A DNA stretch of 64,000 nt from a virus (lineage: Duplodnaviria; Caudoviricetes), in the IMG/VR virus record IMGVR_UViG_3300010376_000005, positions 1,971 through 65,970 of that record; one strand, written 5' to 3'. Shown here piece by piece: positions 3,876 through 51,033 of the stretch. The number at the start of each line of letters is the position of its first letter. Position 1 is the first letter of the stretch. Made by a program: the position numbers and the translations under genes. Below the pieces are notes generated by a model. That model worked only from the letters and a program-made list of their open reading frames with translations, was not told the DNA's origin and did no database searches.

Positions 3876-3939
3876 TTTTGTGGAAAGCAGACCTTCCGCA
3901 ACGCGGCTTGTGAAAGGTGAAAGGCCGCTTCGCCTTTCG

Positions 3940-16742: not shown

Positions 16743-17074
16743 CGACGCGCGTCTGGATCGCCCAATGTCTCTGCCCCGACCGCCACTGCATCTGCGCGCT
16801 CACCGACGAGATCGATGACCGCGACGACCCTGCCCCGCTCGCCGAAGCCCTCGCCAAGGCGCTGGCGGACACCGTCAGGAAAATGCTCGCGGAGAAGCTG
16901 CTCAACCCCTGGTGCGGCCTGTGCGAGGCGCCTGAGGCGTCCTGGCATTTCGAGGTTGCCCGCACCCGCTTCGACACGCTGGAGGCGGCCAGGGCGTCGT
17001 TCGAACGGACCACTGAGGATCAGGCGATGACGCGCGCGATCTTCGGCGACATGGACCGCAGTCGATTGCAGTAG
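16739..17074 (+). CDS. hypothetical Cys-containing protein
   Basis: CLCPDRHC..NPWCGLC. Confidence 0.65.
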   Translation: MTTRVWIAQCLCPDRHCICALTDEIDDRDDPAPLAEALAKALADTVRKMLAEKLLNPWCGLCEAPEASWHFEVARTRFDTLEAARASFERTTEDQAMTRAIFGDMDRSRLQ

Positions 17075-17084
17075 GAGGAGCGTT

Positions 17085-17276
17085 ATGGACGCCAAAGAGA
17101 ACGGCGACGGGGCGACGACTCTCACCAGGATGGAAGCCTGCGCACGCCAGCAGCTTGATTGGATGCACTCTGAAGGATTCGAGCCTGACGTGATCGAGGC
17201 TCAGGAGGCGATTGTCGAGCTGCTGGGGCGGCTGATCGCGGTGGAGCGGGAGCTGCCTATCGCAGATTTGCGATAA
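17085..17276 (+). CDS. hypothetical protein
   Basis: GGAGGAG SD; 63 aa. Confidence 0.55.
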   Translation: MDAKENGDGATTLTRMEACARQQLDWMHSEGFEPDVIEAQEAIVELLGRLIAVERELPIADLR

Positions 17277-17282
17277 GCCGCT

Positions 17283-17304
17283 GGCGCCCCGTTTCCGGGG
17301 CGCC
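17283..17304. terminator. GC hairpin between convergent operons
   Basis: GGCGCCCCG tttc CGGGGCGCC; no U-tract. Confidence 0.45.
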
Positions 17305-17311
17305 GTGGGCC

Positions 17312-18127
17312 CTACCAGCCGAACTTCTCGGCGCAGATCGGGCCGATCGCGCGATCGATGCTCTCGCCTTTGGTCAGCTTGCGACCACAGCACGAGCAGG
17401 CGCCGACGCGCTGGCCGTAGGCGGTCGCCGCCGCCGCTGGATCCGCGACCGCGGCCAGGATGCGGACCGAGGCCTCCGAGCTGCACTCGCGCGAGGCGAC
17501 GAAGCGGCCGGCGGAGATCTTGCCCAGGTAGCTCTCGCCTTCCTTGACGTAGATCGCGCCAGCGTTCTTGCCCGAGGCGCTGGCCAGCGAGAACACGAAC
17601 GTGTCCAGCCGCAGCTTTGGGCGCGCCACCTGATGCGCCAGGGCGGCCTGGAAGGCCTCCTCGATCCGGCTGGCGTCGGTGGTCGGGGCGGCGGCCTCGC
17701 GGGCCACGCGCTCGACCTTGCGCTCGGCGTCGCGCTCGATGCAGCGGGTGACGGCGGCGAGCTGACGCTCGGTGAGGAAGCCGTACTTGCCGAGGGCCTC
17801 GTTCAGCGACGCGGCGAACTCGCCACGCGCGGACGCCAGCCATGCCACCTCGGCCGGGTGGGCCGCGGCCCAGGCCTCAGCCTTGTTGACCTTGGTCCTG
17901 GCGGTCGAGGCGCGGCTCTTCTGCCGCTGCACCATGCTGGTGCGGTACTCGACCTTGCCCGTGCCCTTGCAGGAGTAGCAGGGGCCGAGGCTGCGGTAGG
18001 TGCCGAAGCGGCCGGAGCCGCCGCACTTGGGGCAGCGCTCCACGAACACCTCGGGGGCCGCCTTGGGCGCGCGCGAGCCGGCGTTCAGGTCGTCCTCAAA
18101 GTCGGCGAAGAAGGCGTTGCCGGTCAT
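17312..18127 (-). CDS. DnaJ-type zinc finger plus DUF6011-like protein
   Basis: Start MTGNAFF; CPKCGGSG..CYSCKGTG; C-terminal CSCCGRKLT..SIDRAIGPICAEK. Confidence 0.75.
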   Translation of the reverse strand: MTGNAFFADFEDDLNAGSRAPKAAPEVFVERCPKCGGSGRFGTYRSLGPCYSCKGTGKVEYRTSMVQRQKSRASTARTKVNKAEAWAAAHPAEVAWLASARGEFAASLNEALGKYGFLTERQLAAVTRCIERDAERKVERVAREAAAPTTDASRIEEAFQAALAHQVARPKLRLDTFVFSLASASGKNAGAIYVKEGESYLGKISAGRFVASRECSSEASVRILAAVADPAAAATAYGQRVGACSCCGRKLTKGESIDRAIGPICAEKFGW

Positions 18128-18135
18128 GTCAGTCT

Positions 18136-18243
18136 CAGTCTTCCGTTCGCCCGCCGGGCCGATCCCAGCGGGTGATTTCCTGATACCTGACAATTTGACC
18201 TCCTGTAAATAAGCGGACGTCAGGAAACGGTGCGACAAGTTGG
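18136..18243 (-). repeat. repeated promoter/stem-loop element, copy A
   Basis: CTTGTCGCACC..GACGTCC..TTTACA-N18-TATCAG..GAAATCACC..GGCCCGGCGG on the minus strand. Confidence 0.8.
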
Positions 18244-18260
18244 CCGTCAGACGGCGGGCG

Positions 18261-18428
18261 TCAGATGCGCCCTCCCCGCGCGAGGGCGCGCTCCAGCGTC
18301 TCTGCGTAGGCGCGGCGATCCACCCGCGCGAGGTCGAACCCCTCCTTGTCGCACTCGCGGCGGATGATCCGCGCCGCGACCCGTTCCTGCTCTGCGATGA
18401 ACCGCTCATCGATCACCACTTTTCGCAT
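18261..18428 (-). CDS. hypothetical protein
   Basis: MRKVVIDERF..., start overlaps the upstream stop. Confidence 0.55.
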   Translation of the reverse strand: MRKVVIDERFIAEQERVAARIIRRECDKEGFDLARVDRRAYAETLERALARGGRI

Positions 18429-18700
18429 CAGGCAGCCTCCTTCACCTTGCGCTGCAGCCAGTGCAGCGCCGCAGCTTGGGCTTCTTCGTAGGTTTTGAAG
18501 TTGCGAAACCGGATCGAGCCATTGCCGTGCGCCTTGGTCCGCAAGCGGAACTGGCCGTAATACGAGCTGATCTGCGCGGACATTCCGCGCGGCATGGCAG
18601 GCGACACGAGCCATGAAACGAAGGCCTGGGTGCCGGCCGCGTTGTAAGTCTCCCTGAACTCGACAGGGAAGCTCAGGGAGGGGAAGTCGATGCGGGCCAT
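18428..18700 (-). CDS. hypothetical protein
   Basis: MARIDFPSLSF..., start overlaps the upstream stop. Confidence 0.6.
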   Translation of the reverse strand: MARIDFPSLSFPVEFRETYNAAGTQAFVSWLVSPAMPRGMSAQISSYYGQFRLRTKAHGNGSIRFRNFKTYEEAQAAALHWLQRKVKEAA

Positions 18701-19236
18701 CACTTCACCTTCCGCGAGGGCCACTGGTTGAACAGAAGGCCCAGCTTGGAGACGTTGACGATCTGGGTCGTCTTCCAGTGCTCGATCGCCTCGGCCTTGG
18801 TGACCTTCAGGATCGAGTAGCCCCAGACGTGCGAGCCGCTCAGGCTGGCGCTGTCGCAGTCGCCGATCTTGCCGACCAGCTTGGCGACGAAGGCGTCGTA
18901 CTGCGCCACGGCGTTGGCGACGGCGTCGGCGATGAACTTCGCCTCGCGCTCCGGCGAGCGGATCCGGGTGTTGGGCTCGTGCAGCCTGCGGGTGATCCAA
19001 GTGGCGCCCGTGAAGCTCTGCACGACCTCGTGCCGGCGGGTCTTGGCGCGGTAGGTCTCGCGGTTGTCGCGGCGGGAGTCGCCGCGCGGGAAGGCGCGAT
19101 CGAGATCCCAGTCGTTCTGGGCCAGGATGGCGAGGCGGCTGTCGATGAACGCGCGGGCGTCAGTGGCGGCGCGCGTCTCAGCCTCGACCCGCAGCGGGGC
19201 GACGGCGATGGCGACGGGGTGGTCGGCGGTGGGCAT
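18700..19236 (-). CDS. hypothetical protein
   Basis: Start MPTADHP directly after element copy B. Confidence 0.7.
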   Translation of the reverse strand: MPTADHPVAIAVAPLRVEAETRAATDARAFIDSRLAILAQNDWDLDRAFPRGDSRRDNRETYRAKTRRHEVVQSFTGATWITRRLHEPNTRIRSPEREAKFIADAVANAVAQYDAFVAKLVGKIGDCDSASLSGSHVWGYSILKVTKAEAIEHWKTTQIVNVSKLGLLFNQWPSRKVK

Positions 19237-19249
19237 CTCTGGATCTCTT

Positions 19250-19350
19250 GTGGTCCCGCCGGGCCAACCCCGCCGGTCATTTCTAGATATCCGGCTACTG
19301 CCCTGAGGACAATAACCGGATATCAACTAAGGGTGCGACAGGTTGTCAGG
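19250..19350 (-). repeat. repeated promoter/stem-loop element, copy B
   Basis: CTGTCGCACC..TTGTCC-N17-TATCTA..GGGGTTGGCCCGGCGG. Confidence 0.8.
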
Positions 19351-19374
19351 GCTGCGCCATGGGGTCTCTCGGGT

Positions 19375-19578
19375 TCAGGGGTTGATGTAGCGGATCGCGC
19401 TGCGGGCGATTGCGTGGCGGCGCGCGGATCCCTCAGCGGTCGAGACCGCCTCGCGGTAGGACTGGCATTCGTACGACGCGCGGACCGCGCCTCGGGCGGT
19501 GATCTCGCGAACCTTCCAGGTCGGCCAGCCCGCGCGCTTGGCGCGGGCGACCTCGATGGTGATGATCGGGGCGGCCAT
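19375..19578 (-). CDS. hypothetical protein
   Basis: 67 aa, start overlaps the upstream stop. Confidence 0.55.
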   Translation of the reverse strand: MAAPIITIEVARAKRAGWPTWKVREITARGAVRASYECQSYREAVSTAEGSARRHAIARSAIRYINP

Positions 19579-19847
19579 CAGTCCGTCGCCCAGTCTTCGT
19601 AGCGATCGGTCGCCGAGCTATAGATCTCCTTCAGCTCGGTGTTGACCAGATCCAAGGTGTTGCGGGTGAATTCGCAGTGCGACCAGTACTGGCCGGCGTC
19701 GCTGATGGTCTCGCTGTACCAAATCGCGGCCGAGAAGATCTCGTTCGCGTAGCCGGGGTGATCGTGCGCGGTCATCCAGGCGACGATCTTCTGCTCGTAG
19801 GCAGAGCCCAGGTACATGCCATAGTCGTCGTAGAAGGTGTGGGTCAT
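19578..19847 (-). CDS. hypothetical protein
   Basis: 89 aa, follows element copy C. Confidence 0.6.
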   Translation of the reverse strand: MTHTFYDDYGMYLGSAYEQKIVAWMTAHDHPGYANEIFSAAIWYSETISDAGQYWSHCEFTRNTLDLVNTELKEIYSSATDRYEDWATD

Positions 19848-19854
19848 CGCGGTC

Positions 19855-19951
19855 TCCGCCGCCGGGGCAGTCCCGTGCGGTGATTTCTAGATGCCTCAAA
19901 CTCGCCGGGCTTGTAAATAGCTCGATGCCAGGAAATGGTGCGACATGTTGG
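19855..19951 (-). repeat. repeated promoter/stem-loop element, copy C
   Basis: TGTCGCACC..TTTACA-N18-CATCTA..CACCGCACGGGACTGCCCCGGCGG; back to back with copy D. Confidence 0.8.
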
Positions 19952-19961
19952 CGCCGACCTG

Positions 19962-20056
19962 ACAACTTGCCGCACCTTTTTTGGACGTCGGTCTATTTAC
20001 AGCAGACCGAATAAGCAGGTATCCCGAAATCACACCGCACGGGACTGCCCCGGCGG
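19962..20056 (+). repeat. repeated promoter/stem-loop element, copy D
   Basis: CTTGCCGCACC..GACGTC..TTTACA-N18-TATCCC..CCGCACGGGACTGCCCCGGCGG. Confidence 0.8.
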
Positions 20057-20069
20057 AGGAGAAAACTCA

Positions 20070-20270
20070 ATGACCTACATCGTGAAGCAGGAGGCTGGGT
20101 TCTTGTCCTGGGAGGGCGGCTACACCCACGTCCGCCGGCCTGAAGACGCCCTGCAGTTCAACACCGTCCTTGGCGCCCAGGAGGCGGCGTTCTCTGCCGT
20201 CCAGGACCCTCGCCAGCGCGGTAGCATCGTGGATCGCCGCGAAGCCATCCGCCAGTTCTACGGCGACTGA
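20070..20270 (+). CDS. hypothetical protein
   Basis: MTYIVKQEAG, GGAGGAG SD. Confidence 0.6.
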   Translation: MTYIVKQEAGFLSWEGGYTHVRRPEDALQFNTVLGAQEAAFSAVQDPRQRGSIVDRREAIRQFYGD

Positions 20271-20271
20271 G

Positions 20272-20574
20272 ATGGGAGTCGCAGACACCATCCTCGCCCA
20301 GTTGGGCGGCGCCCGCTTCGTGGCCATGACCGGGGCTCGCGCCCTGGTCGCCGGTCCCGATCACCTCCAGTTCGTGCTGCCGCGCGGCGCGCTGAACGGG
20401 ACCAACAAGGTCCAGATCAAGCTTACGGGCGACGATCTGTACACGGTCGCGGTCTACCGCTTCAGCTCGCGCACCCTGGCCACGAAGCCCACCGCCCCGG
20501 CCGTCAACGGCGTCTACGCCGACGACCTGCGCGCGGTCTTCACCCGCCTCACCGGGCTCGACACGAGCCTCTGA
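20272..20574 (+). CDS. conserved phage hypothetical protein
   Basis: MGVADTILAQLGGARFVAMTGA..DDLYTV..VYADDL..F...TGL. Confidence 0.7.
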   Translation: MGVADTILAQLGGARFVAMTGARALVAGPDHLQFVLPRGALNGTNKVQIKLTGDDLYTVAVYRFSSRTLATKPTAPAVNGVYADDLRAVFTRLTGLDTSL

Positions 20575-20680
20575 TGAGCACCAGCCTGACCATAGAACTC
20601 GCCGTGTACGCCGCCGTCTGTGCAGCGTTCATCGGCTTCGTCATCTACAAAATCATCAAACCCTGAAAGGAAACTGACCA

Positions 20681-20923
20681 ATGGAAGAACTCTTCATCGA
20701 TAACCGGACGCCGACAATCAACAAGACGGACAAGGACAACTGCCTCCGTCGTGGCGTTCGCATCTATAGCGCCACGCCGTTTAGTGCGTGTCTGCAAATC
20801 CGCTCTCACACGGACAAGCAAGGCGTCTACGGCATGGTCCACCTGTCCCCCAGCGAATGCCGCGAACTGGGCGAGTGGCTCCTGGCCTACGCAGAAGAGA
20901 AGGCAAAAAACGCACCAAAATAA
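20681..20923 (+). CDS. hypothetical protein
   Basis: AAGGA SD; 80 aa. Confidence 0.55.
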   Translation: MEELFIDNRTPTINKTDKDNCLRRGVRIYSATPFSACLQIRSHTDKQGVYGMVHLSPSECRELGEWLLAYAEEKAKNAPK

Positions 20924-20928
20924 GCATC

Positions 20929-20957
20929 TTGCATGTTCTGCAAAGGTGTGCTATAAT
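20929..20957 (+). promoter_or_regulatory. sigma70-type promoter
   Basis: TTGCAT-N17-TATAAT upstream of AAGGAG and the start at 21010. Confidence 0.75.
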
Positions 20958-21009
20958 AGCCACACAGCTGAATTGCGGCTGTGTCATCGTCGTGACTTAA
21001 GGAGATCCA

Positions 21010-21735
21010 GTGACTACTCTCAAATTACGCGCGGTTTCACACCCGAAAGGTGACAAGAACCGCTATTGCGGGCCGTCCGCCATCTCAGCACTTACCGGGA
21101 TGGGCACGGGCGAGGCCGCTCGACTGATCAGAGCGGGCAGCAGGAAGACCGCCATCAAGGGAACCCACGAATCCGAAATGTTCCGCGCCCTGCGCCTGTG
21201 CGGGATCGTGTCGACTCCGCATCGGGTCCTCCGCACCCCTCAGGGCAAACAGCCCACCCTGGCCGAGTGGCTGCGCCAGACCCACGGCCGGCGCGGGGGG
21301 AAGGTGTTCCTGATCTCGGCCGGGCATCACTGGCAGCTCGTCAGCGGCAACCGCTTCGTCTGCGGCCAGACCGGCGACGTCGTCGCGCTCGACCACCCCA
21401 AGGTGCATCGGAGGTCCCGCGTCCGCGCGGTGTGGCTGCTGGAGGCGCCGACCGGCGTCAGCATCCCGCCCCTGGCCCGCAAGCCCAAGGCTCGGCCCCC
21501 AACCGCCTACGCCCAGGCGGTGCGGCTGGCCAAGCGCTGGCACCTGCGGATCGAGCGCGACGGGCGCGACTACTGGGTCTTCGGCCCCGAGGGCCTGTAC
21601 GAGGACGAGCACGGCGATCCGAAGGACGATCCCTGCGAGGGATGCCACTTCAGCGTCGGCTGGATCGAGGTGCTCGAAAAGGTCCAGGCCTACGTCGAAG
21701 ACCTGCAGGCCAGGGAGATGAAGGCTGCCGCCTGA
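21010..21735 (+). CDS. putative C39-like (papain-fold) cysteine peptidase
   Basis: YCGPSAIS..GT..EM..AL..G..HHWQLV pattern. Confidence 0.5.
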   Translation: MTTLKLRAVSHPKGDKNRYCGPSAISALTGMGTGEAARLIRAGSRKTAIKGTHESEMFRALRLCGIVSTPHRVLRTPQGKQPTLAEWLRQTHGRRGGKVFLISAGHHWQLVSGNRFVCGQTGDVVALDHPKVHRRSRVRAVWLLEAPTGVSIPPLARKPKARPPTAYAQAVRLAKRWHLRIERDGRDYWVFGPEGLYEDEHGDPKDDPCEGCHFSVGWIEVLEKVQAYVEDLQAREMKAAA

Positions 21736-21832
21736 GGCAGCTTGCCGCACCTTTTCGGGACGTCCGGCAATTGACCTGCGGGTCGATTGCCGGGTATCTC
21801 GAAATCACCGACGGGGCTGCCCCGGCGGCCAC
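21735..21832 (+). repeat. repeated promoter/stem-loop element, copy E
   Basis: CTTGCCGCACC..GACGTCC..TTGACC-N18-TATCTC..CACCGACGGGGCTGCCCCGGCGG. Confidence 0.8.
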
Positions 21833-21847
21833 CTACGGAGAGATCAA

Positions 21848-22060
21848 GTGAACACCGCCTACCGCATCGATTTTCAGATCCCCGGCTGTCTGCCAACCGT
21901 CCTGCACAGGTTCACCCGGCAGCGCGCCATGGCCAAGGCGCGGAGCCTGTCCGCCACGCGCGACTGCTCCGTCTACGCCATCGCCACTGTCGACGGCGTC
22001 GATACTGGGCAGCGCGTCTACTACGCCGGCAGCTTCAGCCACCAGGACGACGCGTTCTGA
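21848..22060 (+). CDS. hypothetical protein
   Basis: 70 aa, first gene after copy E. Confidence 0.55.
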   Translation: MNTAYRIDFQIPGCLPTVLHRFTRQRAMAKARSLSATRDCSVYAIATVDGVDTGQRVYYAGSFSHQDDAF

Positions 22061-22224
22061 TGACCCGCACCCACGCCTACGTCCTGCAGCGCCTCGAAGC
22101 GCTCGAAGCGCAGCGGGCCAGGGCGAAAAGCCCAAAGACCGCTGCGATCCTCGCGAACACCATCCAAGAGCTGCGGTACGTCCGCGACTACCTCGAAGCT
22201 GAACCTTCCAAAGGAAAACTCTGA
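22060..22224 (+). CDS. hypothetical protein
   Basis: MTRTHAYVLQRLE, TGATG coupling. Confidence 0.5.
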   Translation: MTRTHAYVLQRLEALEAQRARAKSPKTAAILANTIQELRYVRDYLEAEPSKGKL

Positions 22225-22225
22225 C

Positions 22226-22561
22226 ATGCCCACCATCAACATCCACTTCGCGGCCTTCGAGGACCAGCCGGTCCACGTCGCATCCGTCGCCGTGGCGGAC
22301 ACCTTCGAGACGGCCGAGGCCGCCCTGGAGGACGCCTACGCGAGGACCCAGAACGTCGCCGGCTCGTGGTCGCGCGGCCCGACCTTCGAGGACGGCTCGG
22401 CGAACCGCGACTACGACTGGCGGATCACAGTGATCGCCCCGCTGCCGGTCGAGGACGGCAAGACCTACGGCCACCGCTCGACCTGCGTCGGCGACATCTT
22501 CGAGGTCGATGGCGTGCGCTGGCGCGTCGCCGGCTTCGGCTTCAAGCCGGAGGCGGCGTGA
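22226..22561 (+). CDS. hypothetical protein
   Basis: HRSTCVGDIFEVDG..W.VAGFGF, a motif seen in YodL-like phage proteins. Confidence 0.65.
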   Translation: MPTINIHFAAFEDQPVHVASVAVADTFETAEAALEDAYARTQNVAGSWSRGPTFEDGSANRDYDWRITVIAPLPVEDGKTYGHRSTCVGDIFEVDGVRWRVAGFGFKPEAA

Positions 22562-22947
22562 TGAGCGCAGCAGCATGGTTTCGAGAGGCGCACGGTCAAC
22601 GCGTGATCAAGCGCGTGGCTGGCGTGGCCACCGTCGAGGACTGGCCGCAGATGGAAGCCGACGCGCGCCGTCAACTCGCCGCGCAAGGTTGCCCGGCTGA
22701 GCAAATTTGGATCGACGACGGAGGCGCTCTCAATTGGCCCGGCGGCTTCCTCAGGAAGCCCAAATTCCGCCCCGTGGAGGCCGGGCGGCTCGTCGTCCGC
22801 TCCAAGGACTACGGGTTCACGCCAGACGGCGCGGATCGGCCCGTATGGGGCGACAAGGCTGGATCGACCGTCGACGGCAGCCGGCTCGTGAAGCGGTACG
22901 GCAACGGTCTCGTGGTCACCTTTGAGATCGAGGGAGTCGCTGCATGA
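22561..22947 (+). CDS. hypothetical protein
   Basis: MSAAAWFRE, TGATG coupling. Confidence 0.6.
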   Translation: MSAAAWFREAHGQRVIKRVAGVATVEDWPQMEADARRQLAAQGCPAEQIWIDDGGALNWPGGFLRKPKFRPVEAGRLVVRSKDYGFTPDGADRPVWGDKAGSTVDGSRLVKRYGNGLVVTFEIEGVAA

Positions 22948-23168
22948 CCCGCGCCACGATCGAGGTGCCCCTGCACGAGGCGTCGACGCTTCGAGTGCTG
23001 GTCAGCTACGCCAAGGTCTCGGCGGCCAGCGACCAGAAGTTCTGGGCCGAGCAAGCCGAGAAGTCCAACAACCCTGACTTCGCGCGCGTCTGCCGATCTC
23101 GGGTCAATGACTACGTCGCCATGGCCGAGTGGGCCGACAACATGCTCAAGCTGCTGGAGGGGAAATGA
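22944..23168 (+). CDS. hypothetical protein
   Basis: 74 aa, ATGA overlap. Confidence 0.55.
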   Translation: MTRATIEVPLHEASTLRVLVSYAKVSAASDQKFWAEQAEKSNNPDFARVCRSRVNDYVAMAEWADNMLKLLEGK

Positions 23169-23377
23169 AGCTCTGTGAGGCTCATGTGCCGGCGCCCCGA
23201 GGGATCGGGGCGCGGCGGGTCAGCGAGCGGCCTGCCGGCCCTGGCGGCTGCACGCGCAAGGCGACGTACACCGATGGGCGCTACGTCTACTGCACCCAGC
23301 ACGCCAAGGAGCCGCCCACGCCCCTGGCGCCGGCCTCGGGGCGGATTCGAGCCGACTGCCGCAAGCTGGAGGACTGA
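23165..23377 (+). CDS. hypothetical protein (Cys/His)
   Basis: MKLCEAH..GCTRKA..YCTQH. Confidence 0.5.
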   Translation: MKLCEAHVPAPRGIGARRVSERPAGPGGCTRKATYTDGRYVYCTQHAKEPPTPLAPASGRIRADCRKLED

Positions 23378-23469
23378 GGCAGCTTGCCGCACTTTTTCCG
23401 GACACCCGGTTATTGCCTCCTGGGCGATAGCCGGGTATCTGGAATTTACCGGTGGGTTGGCCGCCGGGA
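23377..23469 (+). repeat. repeated promoter/stem-loop element, copy F
   Basis: CTTGCCGCAC..TTGCCT-N17-TATCTG..GGGTTGGCC. Confidence 0.8.
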
Positions 23470-23481
23470 GAGACCTTACCG

Positions 23482-23907
23482 ATGTCGACCAAAACCGCCA
23501 AACTGACAAAGACCCAGCGCAAGCTGATCGCCCAGGTCCGCGACGGCCGCGTCTTCGTGCAAACACACGTCTATCGCTCCGGCTACATGAAGACGTCCGA
23601 GGGCGGCGCCCGCGAATGGAGTGCGGCTGAAGGCCTGATCAAGCTCGGCTTGGCTGAGCTGATCGAGCGCAAGTCCGAGTCGACCTACGTGCGCAGCTCG
23701 ATGGGCCACCGCCGGGAGGCGTGGACCAACCACCAATACCGGCTGACCGACGCCGGTCTCGCCCTCCAGGCCGAGATCCTGGCCGCCGCCCGCGCCGAAG
23801 GCCGCGCGGCGCTCCAGGCCGGCGAGAGCCTCTACCACAGCCCCTACGCCTACGGCCCGCAGCGCGACGCTTGGCAGGCTGGCTGGCGCGAAGAAAGAAG
23901 GACGTGA
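23482..23907 (+). CDS. hypothetical protein with C-terminal Rmf/CrpP-like motif
   Basis: AEGRAALQAGE...SPY....RDAWQAGW. Confidence 0.6.
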   Translation: MSTKTAKLTKTQRKLIAQVRDGRVFVQTHVYRSGYMKTSEGGAREWSAAEGLIKLGLAELIERKSESTYVRSSMGHRREAWTNHQYRLTDAGLALQAEILAAARAEGRAALQAGESLYHSPYAYGPQRDAWQAGWREERRT

Positions 23908-24182
23908 TGGGCCGCCACATCGTCTACGTCACCCAGTTCGACGGTTTCTGGAGCCTGACGCCCAAGCAGTGGCGCGAGGTCGTCCGCACGGTCGTGGCCG
24001 GCGGCGAGTACAACCTCTCCGACTACCGGGAGATCCAGCGCCCGCGGTGCGTGCACAAGAACCACACCGGCCGTGGCTACTGGATCGACACCCTGGCCCA
24101 CAGCCTGCAGCAGATGCCCTGCGATTGGGACGACCAGCAGTGGCAGGACGAACTCCACGCGATCGACGGGGCGCTGCTATGA
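23907..24182 (+). CDS. hypothetical protein
   Basis: MGRHIVYVTQ, TGATG coupling. Confidence 0.6.
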   Translation: MGRHIVYVTQFDGFWSLTPKQWREVVRTVVAGGEYNLSDYREIQRPRCVHKNHTGRGYWIDTLAHSLQQMPCDWDDQQWQDELHAIDGALL

Positions 24183-24415
24183 CTGGGCGGAAGGCTGAGA
24201 CCATCGTCGGCACGGATCCCGTGACCGGCGCCGTCATCCGCAAGCGGGTCTTCAAAGGCCAGCGCGTGATCGCCTACGCCGCGCGCGACGAGAACAACCC
24301 TGGCCTCTACTGGGCGGTCCGTGGGACGCTCGAAGAGGCGCACCGCAAGTGCATGGCCGACACCCAGCGCCTCGGCGACGCGGTCGGCTACGTGTTCCCG
24401 GCTGAGGCGGTTTGA
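24179..24415 (+). CDS. hypothetical protein
   Basis: MTGRKAETIV, ATGA overlap. Confidence 0.55.
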   Translation: MTGRKAETIVGTDPVTGAVIRKRVFKGQRVIAYAARDENNPGLYWAVRGTLEEAHRKCMADTQRLGDAVGYVFPAEAV

Positions 24416-24498
24416 CGCACCTTTTTCGGACGTCCCGATATTGCGGTGCAGGCCGATCGTCGGGTATCTACAAATCACCGACGGGGTTGGCCCGGCGG
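24415..24498 (+). repeat. repeated promoter/stem-loop element, copy G
   Basis: CGCACC..GACGTCC..TTGCGG-N18-TATCTA..CACCGACGGGGTTGGCCCGGCGG. Confidence 0.8.
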
Positions 24499-24513
24499 AA
24501 AGGAAATCCATTC

Positions 24514-24741
24514 GTGACTCAGTTCAAGACAATCAAAGAAACCAAGGCCGCCGTCCGCAAGGCGAAGGCGGTTTTCATTCAGGCGCGCTTTGGCGTGTCC
24601 GAGAAGTGGCTGCGGGTCAGCAAGGAAACGGCCTTCGATCTGCTGGACTCCATCGATCCGAACGACACGCCCAAGGACATGGAGATGTTCGCTGGCAGCT
24701 TCGGCGAGATGGACATCGACCGTTACCTGTACCTCGGCTGA
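24514..24741 (+). CDS. hypothetical protein
   Basis: GTG start MTQFKTIKE after AAGGA. Confidence 0.55.
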   Translation: MTQFKTIKETKAAVRKAKAVFIQARFGVSEKWLRVSKETAFDLLDSIDPNDTPKDMEMFAGSFGEMDIDRYLYLG

Positions 24742-24787
24742 TCAGGCGACCTGATCGTTTCTTACGCTTCTGAGGTTCTCTAATCAC

Positions 24788-25168
24788 ATGACCACCGCCC
24801 AACCCCTCTGCCGTAGCTGCGGCAAGCCGATCGCGAAGCACAGCGAGACGGTGTACTTCCGCGACCCCGAGAACGTCGGCAAGCCCGGCATGCCAGCCTC
24901 GCACCTGGGCATCAGCCGCCACCTCGACGTCGCCTATCCGCAGTCGAAGGCCGAAGCCGCCCGCCACGTCAACGGCGAGATCATCTCGGTCAGGCGCTGG
25001 CCTGGGTGTGGGATCACCGCCGTCGGCGTGTGGGACGGCGAGACCTACAGGGATCAGTTCTTCTGCTCCAACGCCTGCGCCATCCGCCTGGGCCGCGCCG
25101 TGGCCCGCCAGGGCATGGTGATGCCCGAGTACAACGCGGCCCTCGCGGCCCAGAAGGAGAAACCATGA
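24788..25168 (+). CDS. hypothetical protein with CxxC and FCSxxC
   Basis: CRSCGK..FFCSNAC. Confidence 0.65.
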   Translation: MTTAQPLCRSCGKPIAKHSETVYFRDPENVGKPGMPASHLGISRHLDVAYPQSKAEAARHVNGEIISVRRWPGCGITAVGVWDGETYRDQFFCSNACAIRLGRAVARQGMVMPEYNAALAAQKEKP

Positions 25169-25413
25169 AACTTGAACTGAACATCGCCTGCAACAACGCC
25201 GCCTTTGACGACGGCAACCTTGGCCCCGAACTGGCGCGCATCCTGGGAGGCGTCGCCCGCTATCTCGGCTCCGAGGACTCTGCTGACATCCGCTTTTGGA
25301 TCGGCGAGCCGCGCAGCCTCCGCGACATCAACGGGAACACCGTTGGGACGTGGGCCATCACCGAAACCCCAGCAGAGGAGGCCGCGCGCCTCAGCAAGGC
25401 AGAGGAAGCCTGA
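25165..25413 (+). CDS. hypothetical protein
   Basis: MKLELNIACNNAAF..RDINGNTVG.W. Confidence 0.6.
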   Translation: MKLELNIACNNAAFDDGNLGPELARILGGVARYLGSEDSADIRFWIGEPRSLRDINGNTVGTWAITETPAEEAARLSKAEEA

Positions 25414-25415
25414 CC

Positions 25416-25649
25416 ATGTTGATGTTTGACACACTCAAGCTCTCGCGTGGGCTCCAGGCCGCCGGCATGCCACAAGCCCAGGCCGATGGCTTCGCCGCCG
25501 CGGTCAGTGACGCCACACAGGAGAGCGTCGCCACTAAGGCTGACCTCGCCGAGGCCAAGGCCGATATTCTGAAATGGGTCCTCGGAGCGCTCGGCCTGCA
25601 AACGGTCGTCGTCATCGGCGCCCTCGTCACCTTGGTGGCGCACCGATAA
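25416..25649 (+). CDS. DUF1640-like coiled-coil protein with C-terminal membrane anchor
   Basis: FDTLKLSRGLQAAGMPQAQA..ATKADL..LKW + hydrophobic tail. Confidence 0.7.
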   Translation: MLMFDTLKLSRGLQAAGMPQAQADGFAAAVSDATQESVATKADLAEAKADILKWVLGALGLQTVVVIGALVTLVAHR

Positions 25650-25668
25650 CCCCAGCGAAGGAGATCGC

Positions 25669-25863
25669 ATGACCACAGCCTACACCCCTGCCCGCCCGGT
25701 CGGGCGGCCGCCGCGGACGACCAAGCGGATCTGCGTGACGATGCGCTTCGAGGTCGAGGAACTGGCCGCGATCAGCGCCGCGGCGACCGAGGCCGGGGCG
25801 GAGGATCGCCACTCCTGGATGCTCGCCACGCTGCTGCGCGCGGCCAAGCAGAAGCGCCGCTAG
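25669..25863 (+). CDS. small DNA-binding protein (ribbon-helix-helix-like)
   Basis: GRPP..ICVTMRF..EELAAI. Confidence 0.5.
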   Translation: MTTAYTPARPVGRPPRTTKRICVTMRFEVEELAAISAAATEAGAEDRHSWMLATLLRAAKQKRR

Positions 25864-26195
25864 TGCGCGCCTGCCTCGACATCCCTGGCGACGCCGAGGG
25901 TGGTCGCGTCGTTGACGTGGCCACCTTCCTGCGCACCAAGACCCCGGCGACCCGCAAGGCCGCCCTGGCCGCCCTGGCCAAAGGGCAGCCCTACCGCAAC
26001 ATCCACGGCTCGTGGTCGCTGACGCCGCTGGCAAGGAGAGTTTGATGACCACTGGGGCGCGATGGTCTTTGGCCCTTGGGCCGCTGTGGCTGGTCCGGTG
26101 GTGGTGGGTCTCACGCTCATGTCGATGATGAAGGGAATATCCCGCGCAGTGGCCCGCGACATGGGCTGGAAGCGTCACTACGACGACGACCTGTA

Positions 26196-26435
26196 CTAGG
26201 ACGCCAGCCGGGGGCGCTCCGGCTCCAGGTCGGCCGCTGCCGCCTCCAGGCGCTCCCGCAGGGCGCGGATGACCTGGGGGGCGGCGGGGTGGTCCTGCAG
26301 CCGGCGATCGGCCGCCTGGATCTGCACCAGGGTCCGCAGCGGGACGCCCGTGAACTGGCTCATCCCCACAGCCCAGTTGGCGCCCCAGAGGCGCTCCCCC
26401 ATCCTGGCGACGATCGCGGCGGTCATTGGCGTCAC
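26196..26435 (-). CDS. HTH-like hypothetical protein
   Basis: WAVGMSQFTGVPLRTLVQI. Confidence 0.5.
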   Translation of the reverse strand: MTPMTAAIVARMGERLWGANWAVGMSQFTGVPLRTLVQIQAADRRLQDHPAAPQVIRALRERLEAAAADLEPERPRLAS

Positions 26436-26502
26436 ATTGCGTGCTTTCGCCGGTTGTCAAGTAAGATGCGCCCGTTGGGTTCCGCTCACGGAGGGCGATG
26501 TG

Positions 26503-27603
26503 ATGCGAACGCTCGGGATGTTCGACTACGTGATGCTCGGCGGGGGGGCGGTCGGCGCCGGCCTGATCCTCGCCTCGGCGATCCTGGCCACGGGCTGCGG
26601 GGCGCAGGCCAAGCCGGTGACCGGGACGTTCGCCATGGGGACAGGCGCGTCGGCGGGCACGCTGATCCTGGTGGACACGCCTAGCGCGATCCCGGCGGCG
26701 GTGAGGGCCTGTCCGGCGGCCAGCAGCCCCAACGTCCTGCCCAAGCCGTGCACCGTCCGGCTGAAGGAAGGGAACTGGACCTCGACCGATCTGCGCGGCA
26801 TGGCCCCGCCTGGGATGGTGACGGTGGATCTCAGCGGCTCGACTTTCCCCTTCTTCCGCCTCGGCCAGGACTCCAACCTGACCGTCAACGGCGGTCTGGT
26901 CGTCGGCGGCAACCAGTGGGGGCAGTGCTGGGCGGTCGACGGCGCAAGCAACGTGACGCTGCAGAACGGCAAGGCCGACGGCTGCATGCAGTCCGGCTAC
27001 CTGATGACCCGATCGCACGGGATCTCGTTCCTCAACCTGACGATCACCAACCCTGGCTGCGACGGCGTGCAGGTGGCCGGCGTCGACGGCTTCCTCGTCT
27101 CGGGCCTGCACTACTCAGGCTACGCCAACAGCACCAACACCTGCCACGCCGACGCCGTGCAGATGTGGGCGATGGAGGGCTACCCACTGCAGCACGGCAA
27201 GCTGCTCAACAACGTCGCCTCCTCGCTTGGACTCATCGTCGCCGATGGCCGCTCGTACGGCTCGCAGGGCTTCACCCTGTTCAACAACAACGGCCCAGGC
27301 GGGAGCGGGTATCCGATCGACGACATCGAGGTCAGCGGCAACATCGCCTACACCTATGGCGGCGTTTGCGTCGCGCTCTACCATGTCACCCACGCCGTTG
27401 CTGTCGACAACCAATGCATCAACCAGCAGCCAGAACCCTGGAAGGGCCGCTACGGCTTCCCAGGCTCAACGGGAAAGCTGGGGCCCAACTGGGTCGACGC
27501 CGTGGTGATCTACGGCGACGGGTGGAGCAACACGCGCAACGTGCCTGAAGGCATCCCGCACTACCAGGGCGGCGCTGACTTGCATCTGGAGCCGCTGCGG
27601 TGA
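26503..27603 (+). CDS. exported right-handed beta-helix (pectate-lyase-like) protein
   Basis: Hydrophobic N-terminus ending LATGC/AQA; repeats SNVTLQNG, ISFLNLTI, HADAVQMW, IEVSGN. Confidence 0.7.
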   Translation: MRTLGMFDYVMLGGGAVGAGLILASAILATGCGAQAKPVTGTFAMGTGASAGTLILVDTPSAIPAAVRACPAASSPNVLPKPCTVRLKEGNWTSTDLRGMAPPGMVTVDLSGSTFPFFRLGQDSNLTVNGGLVVGGNQWGQCWAVDGASNVTLQNGKADGCMQSGYLMTRSHGISFLNLTITNPGCDGVQVAGVDGFLVSGLHYSGYANSTNTCHADAVQMWAMEGYPLQHGKLLNNVASSLGLIVADGRSYGSQGFTLFNNNGPGGSGYPIDDIEVSGNIAYTYGGVCVALYHVTHAVAVDNQCINQQPEPWKGRYGFPGSTGKLGPNWVDAVVIYGDGWSNTRNVPEGIPHYQGGADLHLEPLR

Positions 27604-27977
27604 TCTGGAGGCGAATGAGCCTCCACCCTGTCGCCGACGCCGCCGCCTACGCATTTCCGGGCGCGATTCTTATCACGCTCGTGTTCGCGCCGCTGATCGC
27701 CATCTGGTGGTGGGGACGGATGAAGTGAGGCGTTTGTTACCTCCAACGCGCGGACGTAACAAAAAAGGCGCCCTGGCTTGTCCCCCGGCTGCAGGGCTAG
27801 TGGAACCGGGTGGGGCCAGGGCGTGAAGTGATCCAGTGCCCTCGGGATTGGTGAGGGCGGTCCTGATCTAGCAGAGTCGACGCGGGACGCAATCGCCTCG
27901 CTGGGGCCCCAAATTTCGTCGCTGGCGGCCGCGGCCGGGTGGGCCGCTATCATTGGGCGTCAAGCGCGGAAGGGGCG

Positions 27978-30637: not shown

Positions 30638-30946
30638 GGGGGGACACATGAGGGGACGCTCGGGGGACGCAGTTTCGAGTGTGTGCGTCCCCCATTAACT
30701 TATTATATTTCTTATTCTTTTCTTAGTAGGGGACAGAGGGGGACGCAGTTTGGAGATATTACGCGCTATGCGAGAGAAAAAAAGACACACCACATCAACG
30801 CGTGAATCACTACGCGCGTGGTGGCGCATATACACAAACTGCGTCCCCCTGCGTCCCCCACCCCAAAATCGCTTTTGGGTTCAACGATTTAGGGGGGGAC
30901 ACATCGAGTTTTTCTGCGTCCCCCCGTGCGTCCCCCTGCGTCCCCC
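30638..30946. repeat. iteron-like array; putative replication origin
   Basis: 12 copies of a GGGGAC core (mostly GGGGGACGCA/TGCGTCCCCC) in both orientations around an AT-rich tract (30694-30727). Confidence 0.7.
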
Positions 30947-31383: not shown

Positions 31384-31962
31384 ATGCCGCACGCCCCTCC
31401 CAGCCGGCGCCCCAAGCGCGTCGAGCCCGAGCAGATCAAGCACGACGTGCTGCAGGGTCTCGCGACCGGCTTACCGTTGACGGTCATCGCCCGGCGCAAC
31501 GGCATCAGTCAGGTGGCCATCAACAAGTGGGAGCGGCGCGACCCAGGCTTCGCTGAGGAGGTCGCAGCGGCCAGAGCGTTGGGCTGGGACAGCCTCGCGG
31601 TCGAGTGCTTGGACATCATCGACGACAAGAGCGACGACGTGCTGATCGATGCTGAGGGGATCCCGCGCGCCAACACCGCGGCGGTGCTGCGCGCCAAGGC
31701 GCGTGTCGAGACGAGGCTACGCCTGCTCGCGTGCTGGGATGTGGGCCGCTACGGGGCCCAGAAGACCGTCAAGGTCGAAGGGGAGATCGTGGCGACGCAG
31801 CGCCATGTGCTGGATCCGAGCCTGCTGGATGAGGCAGGACGAGCCGCGCTGAGGCATGTGCTCGCGCAGGCTGAAGCCCAGGGGCTGTTGCCAGCCCCTG
31901 AGCCTGAAGATGCAGAGTTTGAGGACGCCTCAGGCGCGGGCGAGGATGTTGCTGACGGTTGA
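31384..31962 (+). CDS. terS: terminase small subunit
   Basis: N-terminal [39 protein letters not shown] (Sf6-like pattern). Confidence 0.85.
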
Positions 31963-33238: not shown

Positions 33239-34969
33239 ATGGCCCTGATCGACTTCAACGGCCTACTCATCGACCCCCAACAGCAGCGCGCGGCGTTCGA
33301 GCGCTACGACCTGGAGCAGGATCTCTACGCCTTCACCGCCGCCGCGTGGCCGCACATTGACCCTGCCCCGTTCCGCCCAGGCTGGCCAATCGAGGCGGTC
33401 TGCCAGCACCTGGAGGCAGTCGCCGACGGCGACATCCGCCGCCTGATCATCAACATCCCGCCCCGCAGCGGCAAATCCAGCCTCTGCAGCGTCTGCTTCC
33501 CCGCCTGGGTGTGGGCGCAGAAACAGACCAGCCCGACCAGCGGCCCCGGCGTGCAGTTCGTCTTCGCGTCGTACGCCGAGAAGCTCGCCCTGCGGTTCAG
33601 CCTCAGAAACCGCCGCCTGATCACCTCCGACTGGTACAGAAAGCGCTGGGGCGACAGGTTCACCCTGCACGCCGACGAAAACACAACCCACCGCTTCGTC
33701 AACGACAAGTCCGGCGAGCGGCTGGTCACCTCGATCTCAGGCACCGCCACCGGCTTTGGCGGCAATATCTTCGTCATCGACGACCCCAACGCGGCCAACG
33801 AGGCGTTCAGTGAAGCCGCGATCCAGGAGGTGATCGACTGGTGGGACCAGACCGCCAGCACGCGTCTCAACGATATTGACCTGGGCGCGTTCGTGATCAT
33901 CCAGCAGCGGCTGGCCGAGAACGACCTCACCGGCCACGTCCTGGAGCAGGCGATCGGCGAGTGGCAGCTCCTCATGCTGCCGATGCACTACGACCCCGAT
34001 CGCGTCGTCGTCACCAGCATCGGCTGGAAGGATCCGCGCACCCGCGAGGGCGAGCTGCTGTGGCCCGACCGCTTCCCCGACCACGCCGTGCGGCAGCTCG
34101 AACAGACGCTGGGCCCGTTCGGCGCCGCCGGTCAGCTTGAACAGAGCCCCAAGCCCAAGGGGGGCGGCGTCGTCAAATATGAGTGGTGGAACGCCTGGGA
34201 GCACGCCGCCTACCCGCCGATGGACTTCATCCTGGCGTCGCTCGACACCGCCTACACCGAGAAAACCGAGAACGACTACAGCGCGATGACCATCTGGGGC
34301 GTGTTCACCTACGACGTCCTGGCGGTCCCTGGCCGCGTCATCGGCTCCGACGGCCGCCCCTTGTACCTGGGCGATCGCAACTACGCCCAGGAGAGCCCCA
34401 GAGTGATGCTGATGCACGCGTGGCAGATCCGCCTCCCGCTGCACGAACTGGTGGTCAAGGTCGCCGACTCCTGTCGCCGAATGAAAGTGGACCTGCTCCT
34501 TATAGAGAATAAGGCGTCGGGCATCAGCGTCAGCCAGGAGATGCAGCGCCTCTACGGCCACGAGGACTGGGGCGTCGAGCTGAACGACCCCAAGAGCATC
34601 GACAAGCTCTCCCGCCTGCACTCCGTCGTCCCCCTGTTCGCCCCCGAGCTGCGCCAGAAGACCGACGCCCAGGGCCGACCGTTAAGGGACCAGCACGGCG
34701 AGCCGATCGTCATCTCCGCCCGCGGCGGTCTCGTCTACGCGCCCAGCGATCCTGGCATGCCGACCTTCCGCGTGTGGGCCGAGGCGTGCATCCGGCAGGT
34801 CGAGAGCTTCCCGCACGGGGCGCACGACGATTACGTCGACACCGTCTCCCAGGCCCTGCGCTGCCTGCGCGACAGGGGCCTGCTGAGCCTGCCGAGCGAG
34901 AGGCTTGCCGATCTTAACTTGACATCGCAGTATAGTGGCAGTCCGGCGCCGCTCTACCCGACCGTCTGA
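33239..34969 (+). CDS. terL: terminase large subunit
   Basis: NIPPRSGKS Walker A, IDDP Walker B, LDTAY..NDYSA and HDDYVD nuclease motifs. Confidence 0.95.
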   Translation: MALIDFNGLLIDPQQQRAAFERYDLEQDLYAFTAAAWPHIDPAPFRPGWPIEAVCQHLEAVADGDIRRLIINIPPRSGKSSLCSVCFPAWVWAQKQTSPTSGPGVQFVFASYAEKLALRFSLRNRRLITSDWYRKRWGDRFTLHADENTTHRFVNDKSGERLVTSISGTATGFGGNIFVIDDPNAANEAFSEAAIQEVIDWWDQTASTRLNDIDLGAFVIIQQRLAENDLTGHVLEQAIGEWQLLMLPMHYDPDRVVVTSIGWKDPRTREGELLWPDRFPDHAVRQLEQTLGPFGAAGQLEQSPKPKGGGVVKYEWWNAWEHAAYPPMDFILASLDTAYTEKTENDYSAMTIWGVFTYDVLAVPGRVIGSDGRPLYLGDRNYAQESPRVMLMHAWQIRLPLHELVVKVADSCRRMKVDLLLIENKASGISVSQEMQRLYGHEDWGVELNDPKSIDKLSRLHSVVPLFAPELRQKTDAQGRPLRDQHGEPIVISARGGLVYAPSDPGMPTFRVWAEACIRQVESFPHGAHDDYVDTVSQALRCLRDRGLLSLPSERLADLNLTSQYSGSPAPLYPTV

Positions 34970-45866: not shown

Positions 45867-46127
45867 TTAAGGTGCTCGGCCTGCTGCGGCGGCCGCCTCA
45901 GGGTGAGGTGGGTCGTAGAGGTCGGGACGAAGGCGCCAAGCGGGGATTCCAGTGAGAGCTGAAAGTTGTCGCACCCACTCAGCGGGGATGACGCGCCAGC
46001 CGCAGAGAGCTTGCTTGCTGATGCCTAGCTCGTTCGCGATCTCCGTCAGCCGGCCGCGATACTCAGCCCTGAACGCTACGACCGCCTTCTGCGCTGCTGG
46101 AGAGGGTACGCCGACGCGCTGTGCCAT
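45867..46127 (-). CDS. cro: Cro/YdaS-like transcriptional regulator
   Basis: IANELGISKQALCGW..IP..LRPDLY; divergent from the repressor. Confidence 0.8.
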   Translation of the reverse strand: MAQRVGVPSPAAQKAVVAFRAEYRGRLTEIANELGISKQALCGWRVIPAEWVRQLSALTGIPAWRLRPDLYDPPHPEAAAAAGRAP

Positions 46128-46171
46128 GGTCACGCCCTTGGTCGCTTTCGTCCGTCCCCACCCTTGTCCCA

Positions 46172-46188
46172 CTTACATTCGGCGTCAA
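46172..46188 (-). promoter_or_regulatory. TTGAC-N7-GTAAG motif in the cro/cI intergenic region
   Basis: CTTAC ATTCGGC GTCAA. Confidence 0.65.
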
Positions 46189-46202
46189 GTGGAGCCTGTC
46201 CA

Positions 46203-50829: not shown

Positions 50830-51033
50830 ATGAGGGAGGTGCGCTTTGTTCGGGTGAAGAGGTTCACCGAACTGACGGGTTTCACCCAGAAGGCGGTCTA
50901 CTGCAAGATCGCCGACGGGGTGTGGATGCAAAATCGTGAGTACCGGCGTGGGCCGGACAACTCAATTCTGATGGATCTGGAGGGGTATGAGAAATGGGCG
51001 CTAGGGCAGCAACAGGCACCGTCGAAAAGCTGA
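50830..51033 (+). CDS. xis: excisionase
   Basis: FTELTGFTQKAVYCKIADGVW..EY...PD..I..DLEGYEKW; overlaps the int start. Confidence 0.85.
   Translation: MREVRFVRVKRFTELTGFTQKAVYCKIADGVWMQNREYRRGPDNSILMDLEGYEKWALGQQQAPSKS

Follow-up and report, generated by a model that had tools for sequence, protein, structure and literature searches.

The window analysed here is a stretch of 64,000 nucleotides that covers bases 1971-65970 of one 65,970-bp virus record (about 66% GC), IMGVR_UViG_3300010376_000005, and all positions given below refer to it. Seven copies of a repeated intergenic element, named A to G from left to right, lie in a region of about 10 kb, where they head groups of small genes that we call cassettes (Table 1). 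Copies C and D are arranged back to back, with about 20 nt separating their upstream boxes, and the region therefore has two divergent arms. In the leftward arm C is followed by two genes, B by three genes, and A by a single gene, after which the arm ends at a GC hairpin that is likely to be the end of the leftward transcription unit. The rightward arm consists of D with four genes, an AT-rich promoter-like site with the gene of a 241-amino acid (aa) protein (21010-21735), E with six genes, F with three genes, and G with one gene. The gene behind G is followed by a terminator-like hairpin and by about eight genes without elements, up to position 27728. Genes within the cassettes overlap or abut (-4 to +2 nt), as is typical of operons. 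The only large gaps in the rightward arm are those containing E, F, and G (112, 104, and 98 nt) and one of 86 nt, which is occupied by the AT-rich site. This site does not belong to the repeat family, and it is not listed by a strict promoter scan because its -35 matches the consensus at only three of six positions.

Table 1. Coordinates of the repeated elements, their parts and the genes behind them, and of other features of the window.
Feature	Position	Strand	Upstream box	-35-like hexamer	-10-like hexamer	Long hairpin	Leader hairpin	Genes headed	Remarks
Copy A	18128..18252	-	18229-18238	18204-18209	18180-18185	none	18150-18172	271-aa gene, 17312-18127	
Copy B	19237..19356	-	19332-19341	19307-19312	19284-19289	19286-19324 (18 pairs)	19256-19276	18700-19236, 18428-18700, 18261-18428	internal
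Copy C	19848..19956	-	19937-19946	19912-19917	19888-19893	none	19859-19880	19578-19847, 19375-19578	putative primary leftward copy, divergence point
Copy D	19957..20069	+	19967-19976	19996-20001	20020-20025	none	20035-20056	four genes within 20070-20923	putative primary rightward copy
Copy E	21733..21847	+	21742-21751	21771-21776	21795-21800	21753-21804 (22 pairs)	21808-21828	six genes within 21848-23377	internal; preceding stop 21733-21735
Copy F	23375..23481	+	23384-23393	23413-23418	23436-23441	23396-23444 (22 pairs)	23449-23467	three genes within 23482-24415	internal; preceding stop 23375-23377
Copy G	24403..24513	+	24412-24421	24441-24446	24465-24470	weak central hairpin	24478-24498	75-aa gene, 24514-24741	internal; preceding stop 24413-24415, within the upstream box
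Intrinsic-terminator-like hairpin	24739..24757	+							T-rich tail; immediately follows the first gene of the G cassette
9-bp GC hairpin	17283..17304	.							in the 35-nt gap between the ends of the leftward arm (17312) and of a rightward operon (17276)
AT-rich promoter-like site	20929..20957	+							TTGCAT, 17-nt spacer, TATAAT with preceding TGn
Small terminase (terS)	31384-31962								
Large terminase	33239-34969								
cro/YdaS-like protein	45867-46172	-							
cI-like HTH_3 protein	46164-46835	+							immunity region, divergent from the cro/YdaS-like gene
Tyrosine integrase	50994-52181								with arm-binding domain
Second motif (ten copies)	3874(-), 12661(+), 13150(-), 26460(-), 31360(-), 33214(+), 41986(-), 41994(+), 46188(-), 46918(-)								

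The original prediction had placed seven copies at these sites, and an alignment, two sequence patterns, and a profile all confirm them. The copies form a single family that can be aligned over about 105 nt, with a mean column identity of 67-73% and 34 invariant columns. The upstream box and the -10/GAAAT box were each represented by an independent degenerate pattern, and both patterns match the same seven places and no other. About 0.5-0.6 matches would be expected by chance, and none of 100 shuffles gave seven. With an nhmmer profile the seven copies score 74-89 bits and everything else scores below 20 bits, and there is no eighth copy in the whole 65,970-bp record. A census of repeated k-mers was too noisy in this GC-rich DNA. 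All seven copies point toward the genes behind them, and each spans the gap from a stop codon to the next start codon, these gaps being 98-138 nt long.

The order of the parts, as it had been claimed, is the same in all copies. The upstream box TTGnCGCACC (in B the first three letters are CTG, in C they are ATG) is followed by a run of three to six T, two of which are invariant, 15-19 nt 5' of the -35-like hexamer, and by a small palindrome resembling GACGTC (GGACGTCC), which reads GATATC in B and is degenerate in C and F. The -35-like hexamer has the form TT(G/T)nnn, being TTTACA in A, C, and D, TTGACC in E, and weaker in B, F, and G. After a spacer of 18 nt (A, C, D, E, and G) or 17 nt (B and F) comes the -10-like hexamer TATCnn (CATCTA in C), then the conserved A-rich block GAAATCACC, and finally a GC hairpin, which ends 11-22 nt before the start codon. 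The offset between the upstream box and the -10 box is fixed at 50 or 51 nt in all seven copies. Conservation extends about 8-10 nt 5' of the upstream box (CTGA.. or CTGAGG). It had been noted that the element begins at the preceding stop codon in E, F, and G. This is correct for E and F, in which the stop codon is part of the 5' extension CTGAGG, but not for G, whose stop codon lies inside the upstream box and not before it.

The cassette proteins do not show any paralogy among each other. Gene duplication is thus ruled out as the origin of the repeat and, because the genes behind the copies are not paralogues, the repeat seems to be retained for its own sake. Only few proteins match known families, namely the 271-aa protein behind A (phrog_4046 / DUF6011), a 178-aa protein (phrog_4687), and a 100-aa protein (phrog_9437). 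Relatives of the phage are found only as IMG/VR contigs, with terminases of 73-87% identity, and two of these are complete (G001, 65 kb, and G002, 73 kb). None of the genes from 17312 to 27728 has a homologue in G001 or G002, and in a set of 5.8 billion proteins the nearest homologue of the 178-aa protein shares 58% identity with it. Because of these missing and distant homologues the 10-kb region is, judged from its gene content, a lineage-specific, hyperplastic, and ORFan-rich accessory region. The gene at 20681-20923 has a lower GC content (0.56) and together with the following AT-rich site looks like a moron-type insert (20667-21009). The insert sits between the D cassette and element E and has no element at its left border. 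Given its low-GC gene and AT-rich promoter, genes would therefore also have entered the region without an element at the junction. In addition, the 141-aa protein behind F (23482-23907) has an RMF-like C-terminus (Pfam RMF, E-value 1.4e-5, 25.5 bits at a cut-off of 27.9 bits).

We consider it fairly probable, although by no means assured, that the seven elements constitute a paralogous set of promoter-plus-leader cassettes, which contain built-in RNA hairpins and are regulated together. A regulatory cassette heading groups of accessory genes, with a promoter-like core and a conserved leader hairpin, had been proposed before and is supported by the data presented here. The elements would organise the region into divergent short operons, with C, B, and A driving the leftward and D, E, F, and G the rightward ones. 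Of the possible hexamer pairs, only the -35-like hexamer and TATCnn, 17 or 18 nt apart, are spaced in a workable way. Host RNA polymerase carrying the primary sigma factor would use these two hexamers and start about 7 nt downstream in the A-rich block. The host is probably Caulobacter-like or alphaproteobacterial, and the nearest match of the phage integrase is found in a Caulobacter genome (59% identity), followed by matches in Comamonadaceae (about 45%). The consensus of Caulobacter RpoD promoters comprises TTGaCgS at -35 and GCtANAWC at -10, without a T at the last -10 position (PMC8144410). The -10 of the elements is closer to this sequence than to the -10 of E. coli.

Other assignments of the promoter boxes were considered and rejected. 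Combining the upstream box as -35 with a TATT motif as -10 would result in a spacer of 20-21 nt, and there is nothing resembling a -10 at 10-14 nt downstream of the upstream box. Patterns of the extracytoplasmic function (ECF), sigma-54, and RpoH types are either absent from some copies or wrongly spaced. Sites of the host regulators CtrA, LexA, DnaA, IHF, and CcrM are not consistently present in the copies. Inside copy A (18193-18209) there is a strong AGGAGG resembling a Shine-Dalgarno (SD) sequence together with an in-frame TTG, which would lengthen the 271-aa gene by 22 residues. However, homologues of the 271-aa protein align from residues 3-9 of the shorter form, and therefore the ATG at 18127 is the likelier start.

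If transcription starts about 7 nt past the -10 hexamer, the upstream box is centred near -61, the T-run near -54, and the palindrome near -45. Such positions are typical of activator sites or of contacts with the alpha subunit of the polymerase. Because the hexamers are weak and the invariant upstream parts are kept at a rigid distance, the promoters are probably switched together by a single DNA-binding regulator of the phage or the host, or through alpha-subunit contacts. A common regulator is also to be expected given seven promoters and about 20 genes in a prophage. It could be imagined that the upstream box is a binding site of the phage repressor resembling the stoperators of Cluster A mycobacteriophages, and that the bound repressor blocks initiation or elongation and thereby silences the cassettes in the lysogen. 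This would be compatible with the promoter function. Stoperators are asymmetric, intergenic, oriented with transcription, and resemble a -35 element plus extension (PMC9283540). The upstream box likewise is asymmetric, covers about 11 bp, resembles a -35 element plus extension, and is found in seven intergenic copies that are all oriented with the genes downstream, and a temperate phage must silence these genes. However, stoperators are bare sites of about 13 bp that are distributed over the genome, with sites also at the early lytic promoter that adjoins the repressor gene (PMC9283540), whereas the box is part of a 105-nt unit and confined to 18.1-24.5 kb. The immunity region with the cI-like and cro-like genes (45867-46835) is 20 kb away from the elements and does not contain any copy of their boxes; another genome-wide motif is found there instead. 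In addition, the cI-like protein is an ordinary HTH_3 protein that would be expected to bind palindromes, and near -61 the box is located upstream of the region covered by the polymerase, a position more fitting for an activator than for a repressor. A repressor site of this kind is therefore doubtful.

The second prominent property of the elements is their potential to form RNA hairpins. All copies contain an inverted repeat that extends from the T-run to the A-rich block, and in it 87% of the cells of the alignment pair, compared to 36-54% if the partner columns are slid by one to three positions. An imperfect inverted repeat between the hexamers had been described for B, E, and F, and these indeed fold into stems of 18, 22, and 22 pairs that are far better than those of shuffled sequences (z-scores of -3.4, -4.1, and -5.2). 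The corresponding folds of A, C, and D do not stand out from shuffles in this way (-1.05, 0.02, and -1.7). The folds are 8-11 kcal/mol stronger as sense than as antisense RNA (-28.9 versus -17.4 kcal/mol in B, -35.3 versus -27.2 in E, and -36.5 versus -27.7 in F), and the weak central fold of G shows -15.7 versus -11.0 kcal/mol. The bias arises because departures from Watson-Crick pairing consist almost entirely of G-U pairs on the sense strand, about ten of them compared to a single A-C juxtaposition in the folds of B, E, and F. This points to selection on the transcript, although a left arm constrained to keep TTG for the -35 could be another source of the bias. Among the five internal copies, four form the long hairpin (strong in B, E, and F, weak in G), the exception being A, and it is missing in the primary divergent copies C and D, which do not receive any transcription from upstream. 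This distribution would fit a role on read-through RNA, such as attenuation, cutting by an RNase III-type enzyme, or protection of the upstream 3' end. The long stems are not followed by a U-tract on either strand, and classical intrinsic termination is therefore unlikely.

The same hairpins could also be explained without promoters in every copy. Transcription might start only at C and D or elsewhere and generate two long polycistronic RNAs, in which the elements are processing and stability sites. The long hairpin would be an RNase III-type site and the GC hairpin would guard the new 5' end, as in T7, the promoter likeness being incidental. RNase III cuts hairpins of about 20 bp between the early cistrons of T7, after which the message upstream would retain a protective stem at its 3' end, and natural RNase III substrates have about the size of a 22-pair stem. 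Long hairpins of this length lie between cistrons in the region described here as well, are found in internal copies only, and are stronger on the sense strand, with the excess of G-U over A-C described above. In addition, there is no intrinsic terminator between the cassettes, and therefore read-through is expected. However, the T7 sites are not promoters, and a sufficiently long stem is present in only three of the five internal copies. Every other block has been kept in A, C, D, and G, although these do not have the long hairpin. C and D have nothing but each other upstream and must therefore contain a promoter. Neither the invariant upstream box nor the rigid spacing of 50/51 nt has any role in the predicted RNA structure, and the asymmetry of T versus G can also be explained by selection keeping TTG in the left arm. 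Thus, we regard elements acting solely on the RNA as an unlikely explanation.

In the promoter-plus-leader explanation, in contrast, the long hairpin would act in addition to initiation at each copy. The complementarity of the two promoter arms would cause RNA that reads through B, E, and F, and weakly G, to fold into a hairpin of 18-22 bp. This hairpin could attenuate the read-through, be cut by an RNase III-type enzyme, or protect the 3' end of the upstream message, and each cassette would thereby be insulated from its neighbour. The RNA initiated at the element itself would open with the GC hairpin only 1-3 nt from its 5' end. By analogy to known 5' stem-loop stabilisers, this hairpin might protect the mRNA from decay that depends on the 5' end. 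It is present in all seven copies with folding energies of -12 to -19 kcal/mol and begins 1-3 nt past the A of the A-rich block. In this part F is the most divergent copy with 52-62% identity to the others, yet it has kept a 7-bp stem in a shifted register.

The leader hairpin had also been proposed to be a nut/boxB-like antitermination signal. In this case, the hairpin, as a boxB-like or put-like site, would render the polymerase resistant to terminators. The conserved hairpin lies just 3' of each putative start in a temperate phage, as the lambda nut sites follow early promoters, and a terminator-like site is present after the first gene behind G. However, boxB is recognised through its loop, while the loops of the leader hairpins vary in sequence and length and only the stems are kept, which makes a nut-type role unlikely. 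We did not see a boxA-like partner, nor any other conserved single-stranded box between the hairpin and the SD, and did not identify an N-like protein. There are also almost no terminators inside the cassettes to overcome, and the seven sites, one per promoter, differ from the two of lambda. We regard antitermination as very improbable.

The relationships between the copies vary along the element. The 5' part groups E, F, and G, while in the middle segment B pairs with F and A with D. In the hairpin segment C and D are 96% identical, E is nearest to C, B is nearest to G, and F stands apart. These differences are compatible with exchange between the copies, which is a weak indication given the short segments. 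As dispersed homologous sequences in a single orientation, the copies could be crossover points for the gain and loss of cassettes. Could the elements be present for the sake of their own mobility? They might be miniature mobile elements, similar to miniature inverted-repeat transposable elements (MITEs) or Correia elements, or integron-type sites of the phage integrase or of a serine recombinase. The dispersed copies, the internal inverted repeat, the changing neighbours of the segments, and the stop codons that E and F supply to the genes upstream would agree with this, as would the tyrosine integrase, the resolvase-like protein, and the YqaJ exonuclease encoded by the phage. However, the inverted repeat is located inside the element (columns 31-82 of alignment A1) and the ends of the element are not complementary. 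The element is not MITE-like because terminal inverted repeats are missing, and target-site duplications were not seen. All copies are oriented alike with respect to the genes and lie equally far from the start codons, the element is not present outside this genome in the collections searched, and the low-GC insert at 20.7-21.0 kb has no element at its left border. It is hard to reconcile these observations with a selfish or recombination element, which we think is very improbable.

Several observations weigh against the promoter-plus-leader explanation itself. The hexamers are weak, with three to five of six matches at -35 and a TATC without T at -7, and the strict scan for E. coli-type promoters lists none of the seven, because the last -10 position does not have a T. 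The best fit to the -35 consensus of the assumed host type is not the -35-like hexamer but the upstream box (TTGnCGC in five copies), behind which nothing -10-like is found at a usable distance. The spacer of 18 nt is one above the range first reported for Caulobacter, and a regulator was not recognised among the window proteins examined. Internal copy A does not have the long hairpin, and G has only a weak one. Covariation, for which a check had been suggested, is modest because the copies are few (seven) and related: four pairs show double changes, but the score was reached by 49 of 500 shuffles. Finally, the explanation is derived from the sequence of an uncultured virus.

Searches in other collections did not reveal any further copies. 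The DNA of the element does not match deposited phages (megablast, blastn). A loose pattern of two boxes gave only single chance matches among the matches listed for viral and genome contigs, and a stricter pattern gave 25 single chance matches in metagenome contigs, none of them with an upstream box. Neither patterns nor BLAST found the element in the complete relatives G001 and G002 and in three fragments, and the nhmmer profile did not detect a copy outside this genome in 402 loci. A covariance model (R1) found none in those genomes searched among 151 from the family of the Caulobacter genome with the closest integrase, in a search that had no positive control. The homologues of the 271-aa and 178-aa cassette proteins, which are at most 58% identical, are not flanked by the element. 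Rfam does not contain a match to either strand of 17000-26000 at E-values up to 1. A comparison of the cassette content shows that G001 and G002 lack the whole 10-kb region, and a repeated family of a similar kind was not found in the relatives.

The promoter-early stem-loop (PeSL) elements of T4-type phages had been named as a precedent, and this is borne out by their published description, which lists the same parts in the same order. PeSL elements comprise a stop codon, a T- or AT-rich tract, -35 and -10 boxes, a stem-loop, a stem of the type GGGG..CCCC, an SD sequence, and a start codon (PMC2839356). The stem-loop is mostly located between the boxes or over the -10, includes G-T pairs, and has been proposed to act on read-through RNA in a similar way as considered here, and the elements are found in ORFan-rich variable regions (PMC2839356). 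PeSL cassettes are known from the T4-type phages RB49/phi1, PST, and nt-1 (PMC2839356, PMC4122927). The seven elements are likewise repeated composite units, intergenic from stop codon to SD and start codon, that precede small ORFan genes in a variable region, and they have a stem-loop next to the promoter boxes, namely the GC hairpin 3' of the -10 in all copies and, in B, E, and F, also a stem of 18-22 bp that separates the boxes. An AT-rich tract 5' of the -35 is present in both, but the T-run is far shorter than in the T4-type phages. PeSL elements have a sigma-70-like promoter, to which the hexamers spaced by 17/18 nt in all seven copies might correspond, but these hexamers are weak and not found by the strict scan.

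In other respects the two systems differ considerably. The elements described here have an unrelated sequence and belong to an unrelated lineage, a temperate phage of 66% GC with a probably alphaproteobacterial host, whereas the published PeSL cases are from lytic, AT-rich T4-type phages (PMC2839356, PMC4122927). There are seven copies instead of dozens. The elements have an additional, invariant upstream box at a fixed distance of 50/51 nt and two separate hairpins, of which the long one is confined to internal copies. The evolutionary hallmarks of PeSL elements are shuffling, insertions and deletions between close relatives, and mini-circles (PMC2839356, PMC4122927). Common descent with the T4-type elements does not find support, as the phage encodes an integrase and a cI-like gene, its large terminase is at most 40% identical to those of the deposited phages, which are all distant, and neither megablast nor blastn gave a DNA match. 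Because the same layout is found in a phage of a quite different host group, the comparison suggests that it arises by convergence.

Taking the promoter, hairpin, and box together, one could speculate that a single DNA sequence performs three jobs, being a promoter, a hairpin that processes or insulates read-through RNA, and, with its box at -61, an operator of a phage regulator. The accessory region might then be one regulon with insulation between the cassettes, and the box at -61 might mimic the -35 consensus of the host. We offer both suggestions only tentatively and with low confidence. If true, such an arrangement would be lineage-specific and undescribed for temperate phages of alphaproteobacteria. 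As promoter-plus-leader cassettes, the elements would extend the PeSL principle, by which repeated promoter/hairpin units drive and delimit ORFan cassettes, to a temperate GC-rich phage. The rigid upstream box points to a regulator that could be fished out. The promoter, whose arms pair in the RNA, is a compact and testable example of a sequence that may function at the DNA and the RNA level. Regarding annotation, the elements supply an operon structure for a region with almost no gene of known function.

Based on its gene content the phage is temperate and tailed, the first because it encodes an integrase and a cI-like HTH protein. In addition to the terminases, the portal and a primase-helicase can be recognised among the window proteins, and tRNA genes are not present. 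A second motif, TTGAC-N7-G(T/A)AAG, is found in ten intergenic copies before structural, packaging, and replication operons and before the cro-like gene. One of these copies ends 8 nt ahead of the start codon of the terminase. The first half of the motif (aaCTTGACG) resembles the upstream box of the elements, and the motif is too compact to represent a pair of -35 and -10 boxes. Thus, the genome seems to have two separate families of signals. Upstream of terS, a gap of lower GC content (30662-30946) contains the 11-mer GGGGGACGCAG in at least six occurrences in both orientations. The 11-mer is iteron-like, and the gap may therefore be an origin or a packaging region.

Repeats of other types were seen in other phages. 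The early region of G001 contains two copies of a 39-nt promoter of the alphaproteobacterial type (CTTGAC, 17 nt, CTAGAT; L332:665-703 and 3885-3923). In an unrelated phage that encodes a homologue of the 271-aa protein (L183: 6014-6508, 11358-11709), units of a GC hairpin, an SD sequence, and an ATG are repeated between small genes. These units are about 40 nt long, are present in three plus two copies, and do not have a promoter-like part. In one relative (L243, IMGVR_UViG_3300036846_001253) a recombination block with YqaJ, cI, and primase is located directly upstream of terS, and the window from 15.7 to 31.3 kb does not have a counterpart in the stretch of L243 examined. The order of the modules therefore varies inside this phage group.

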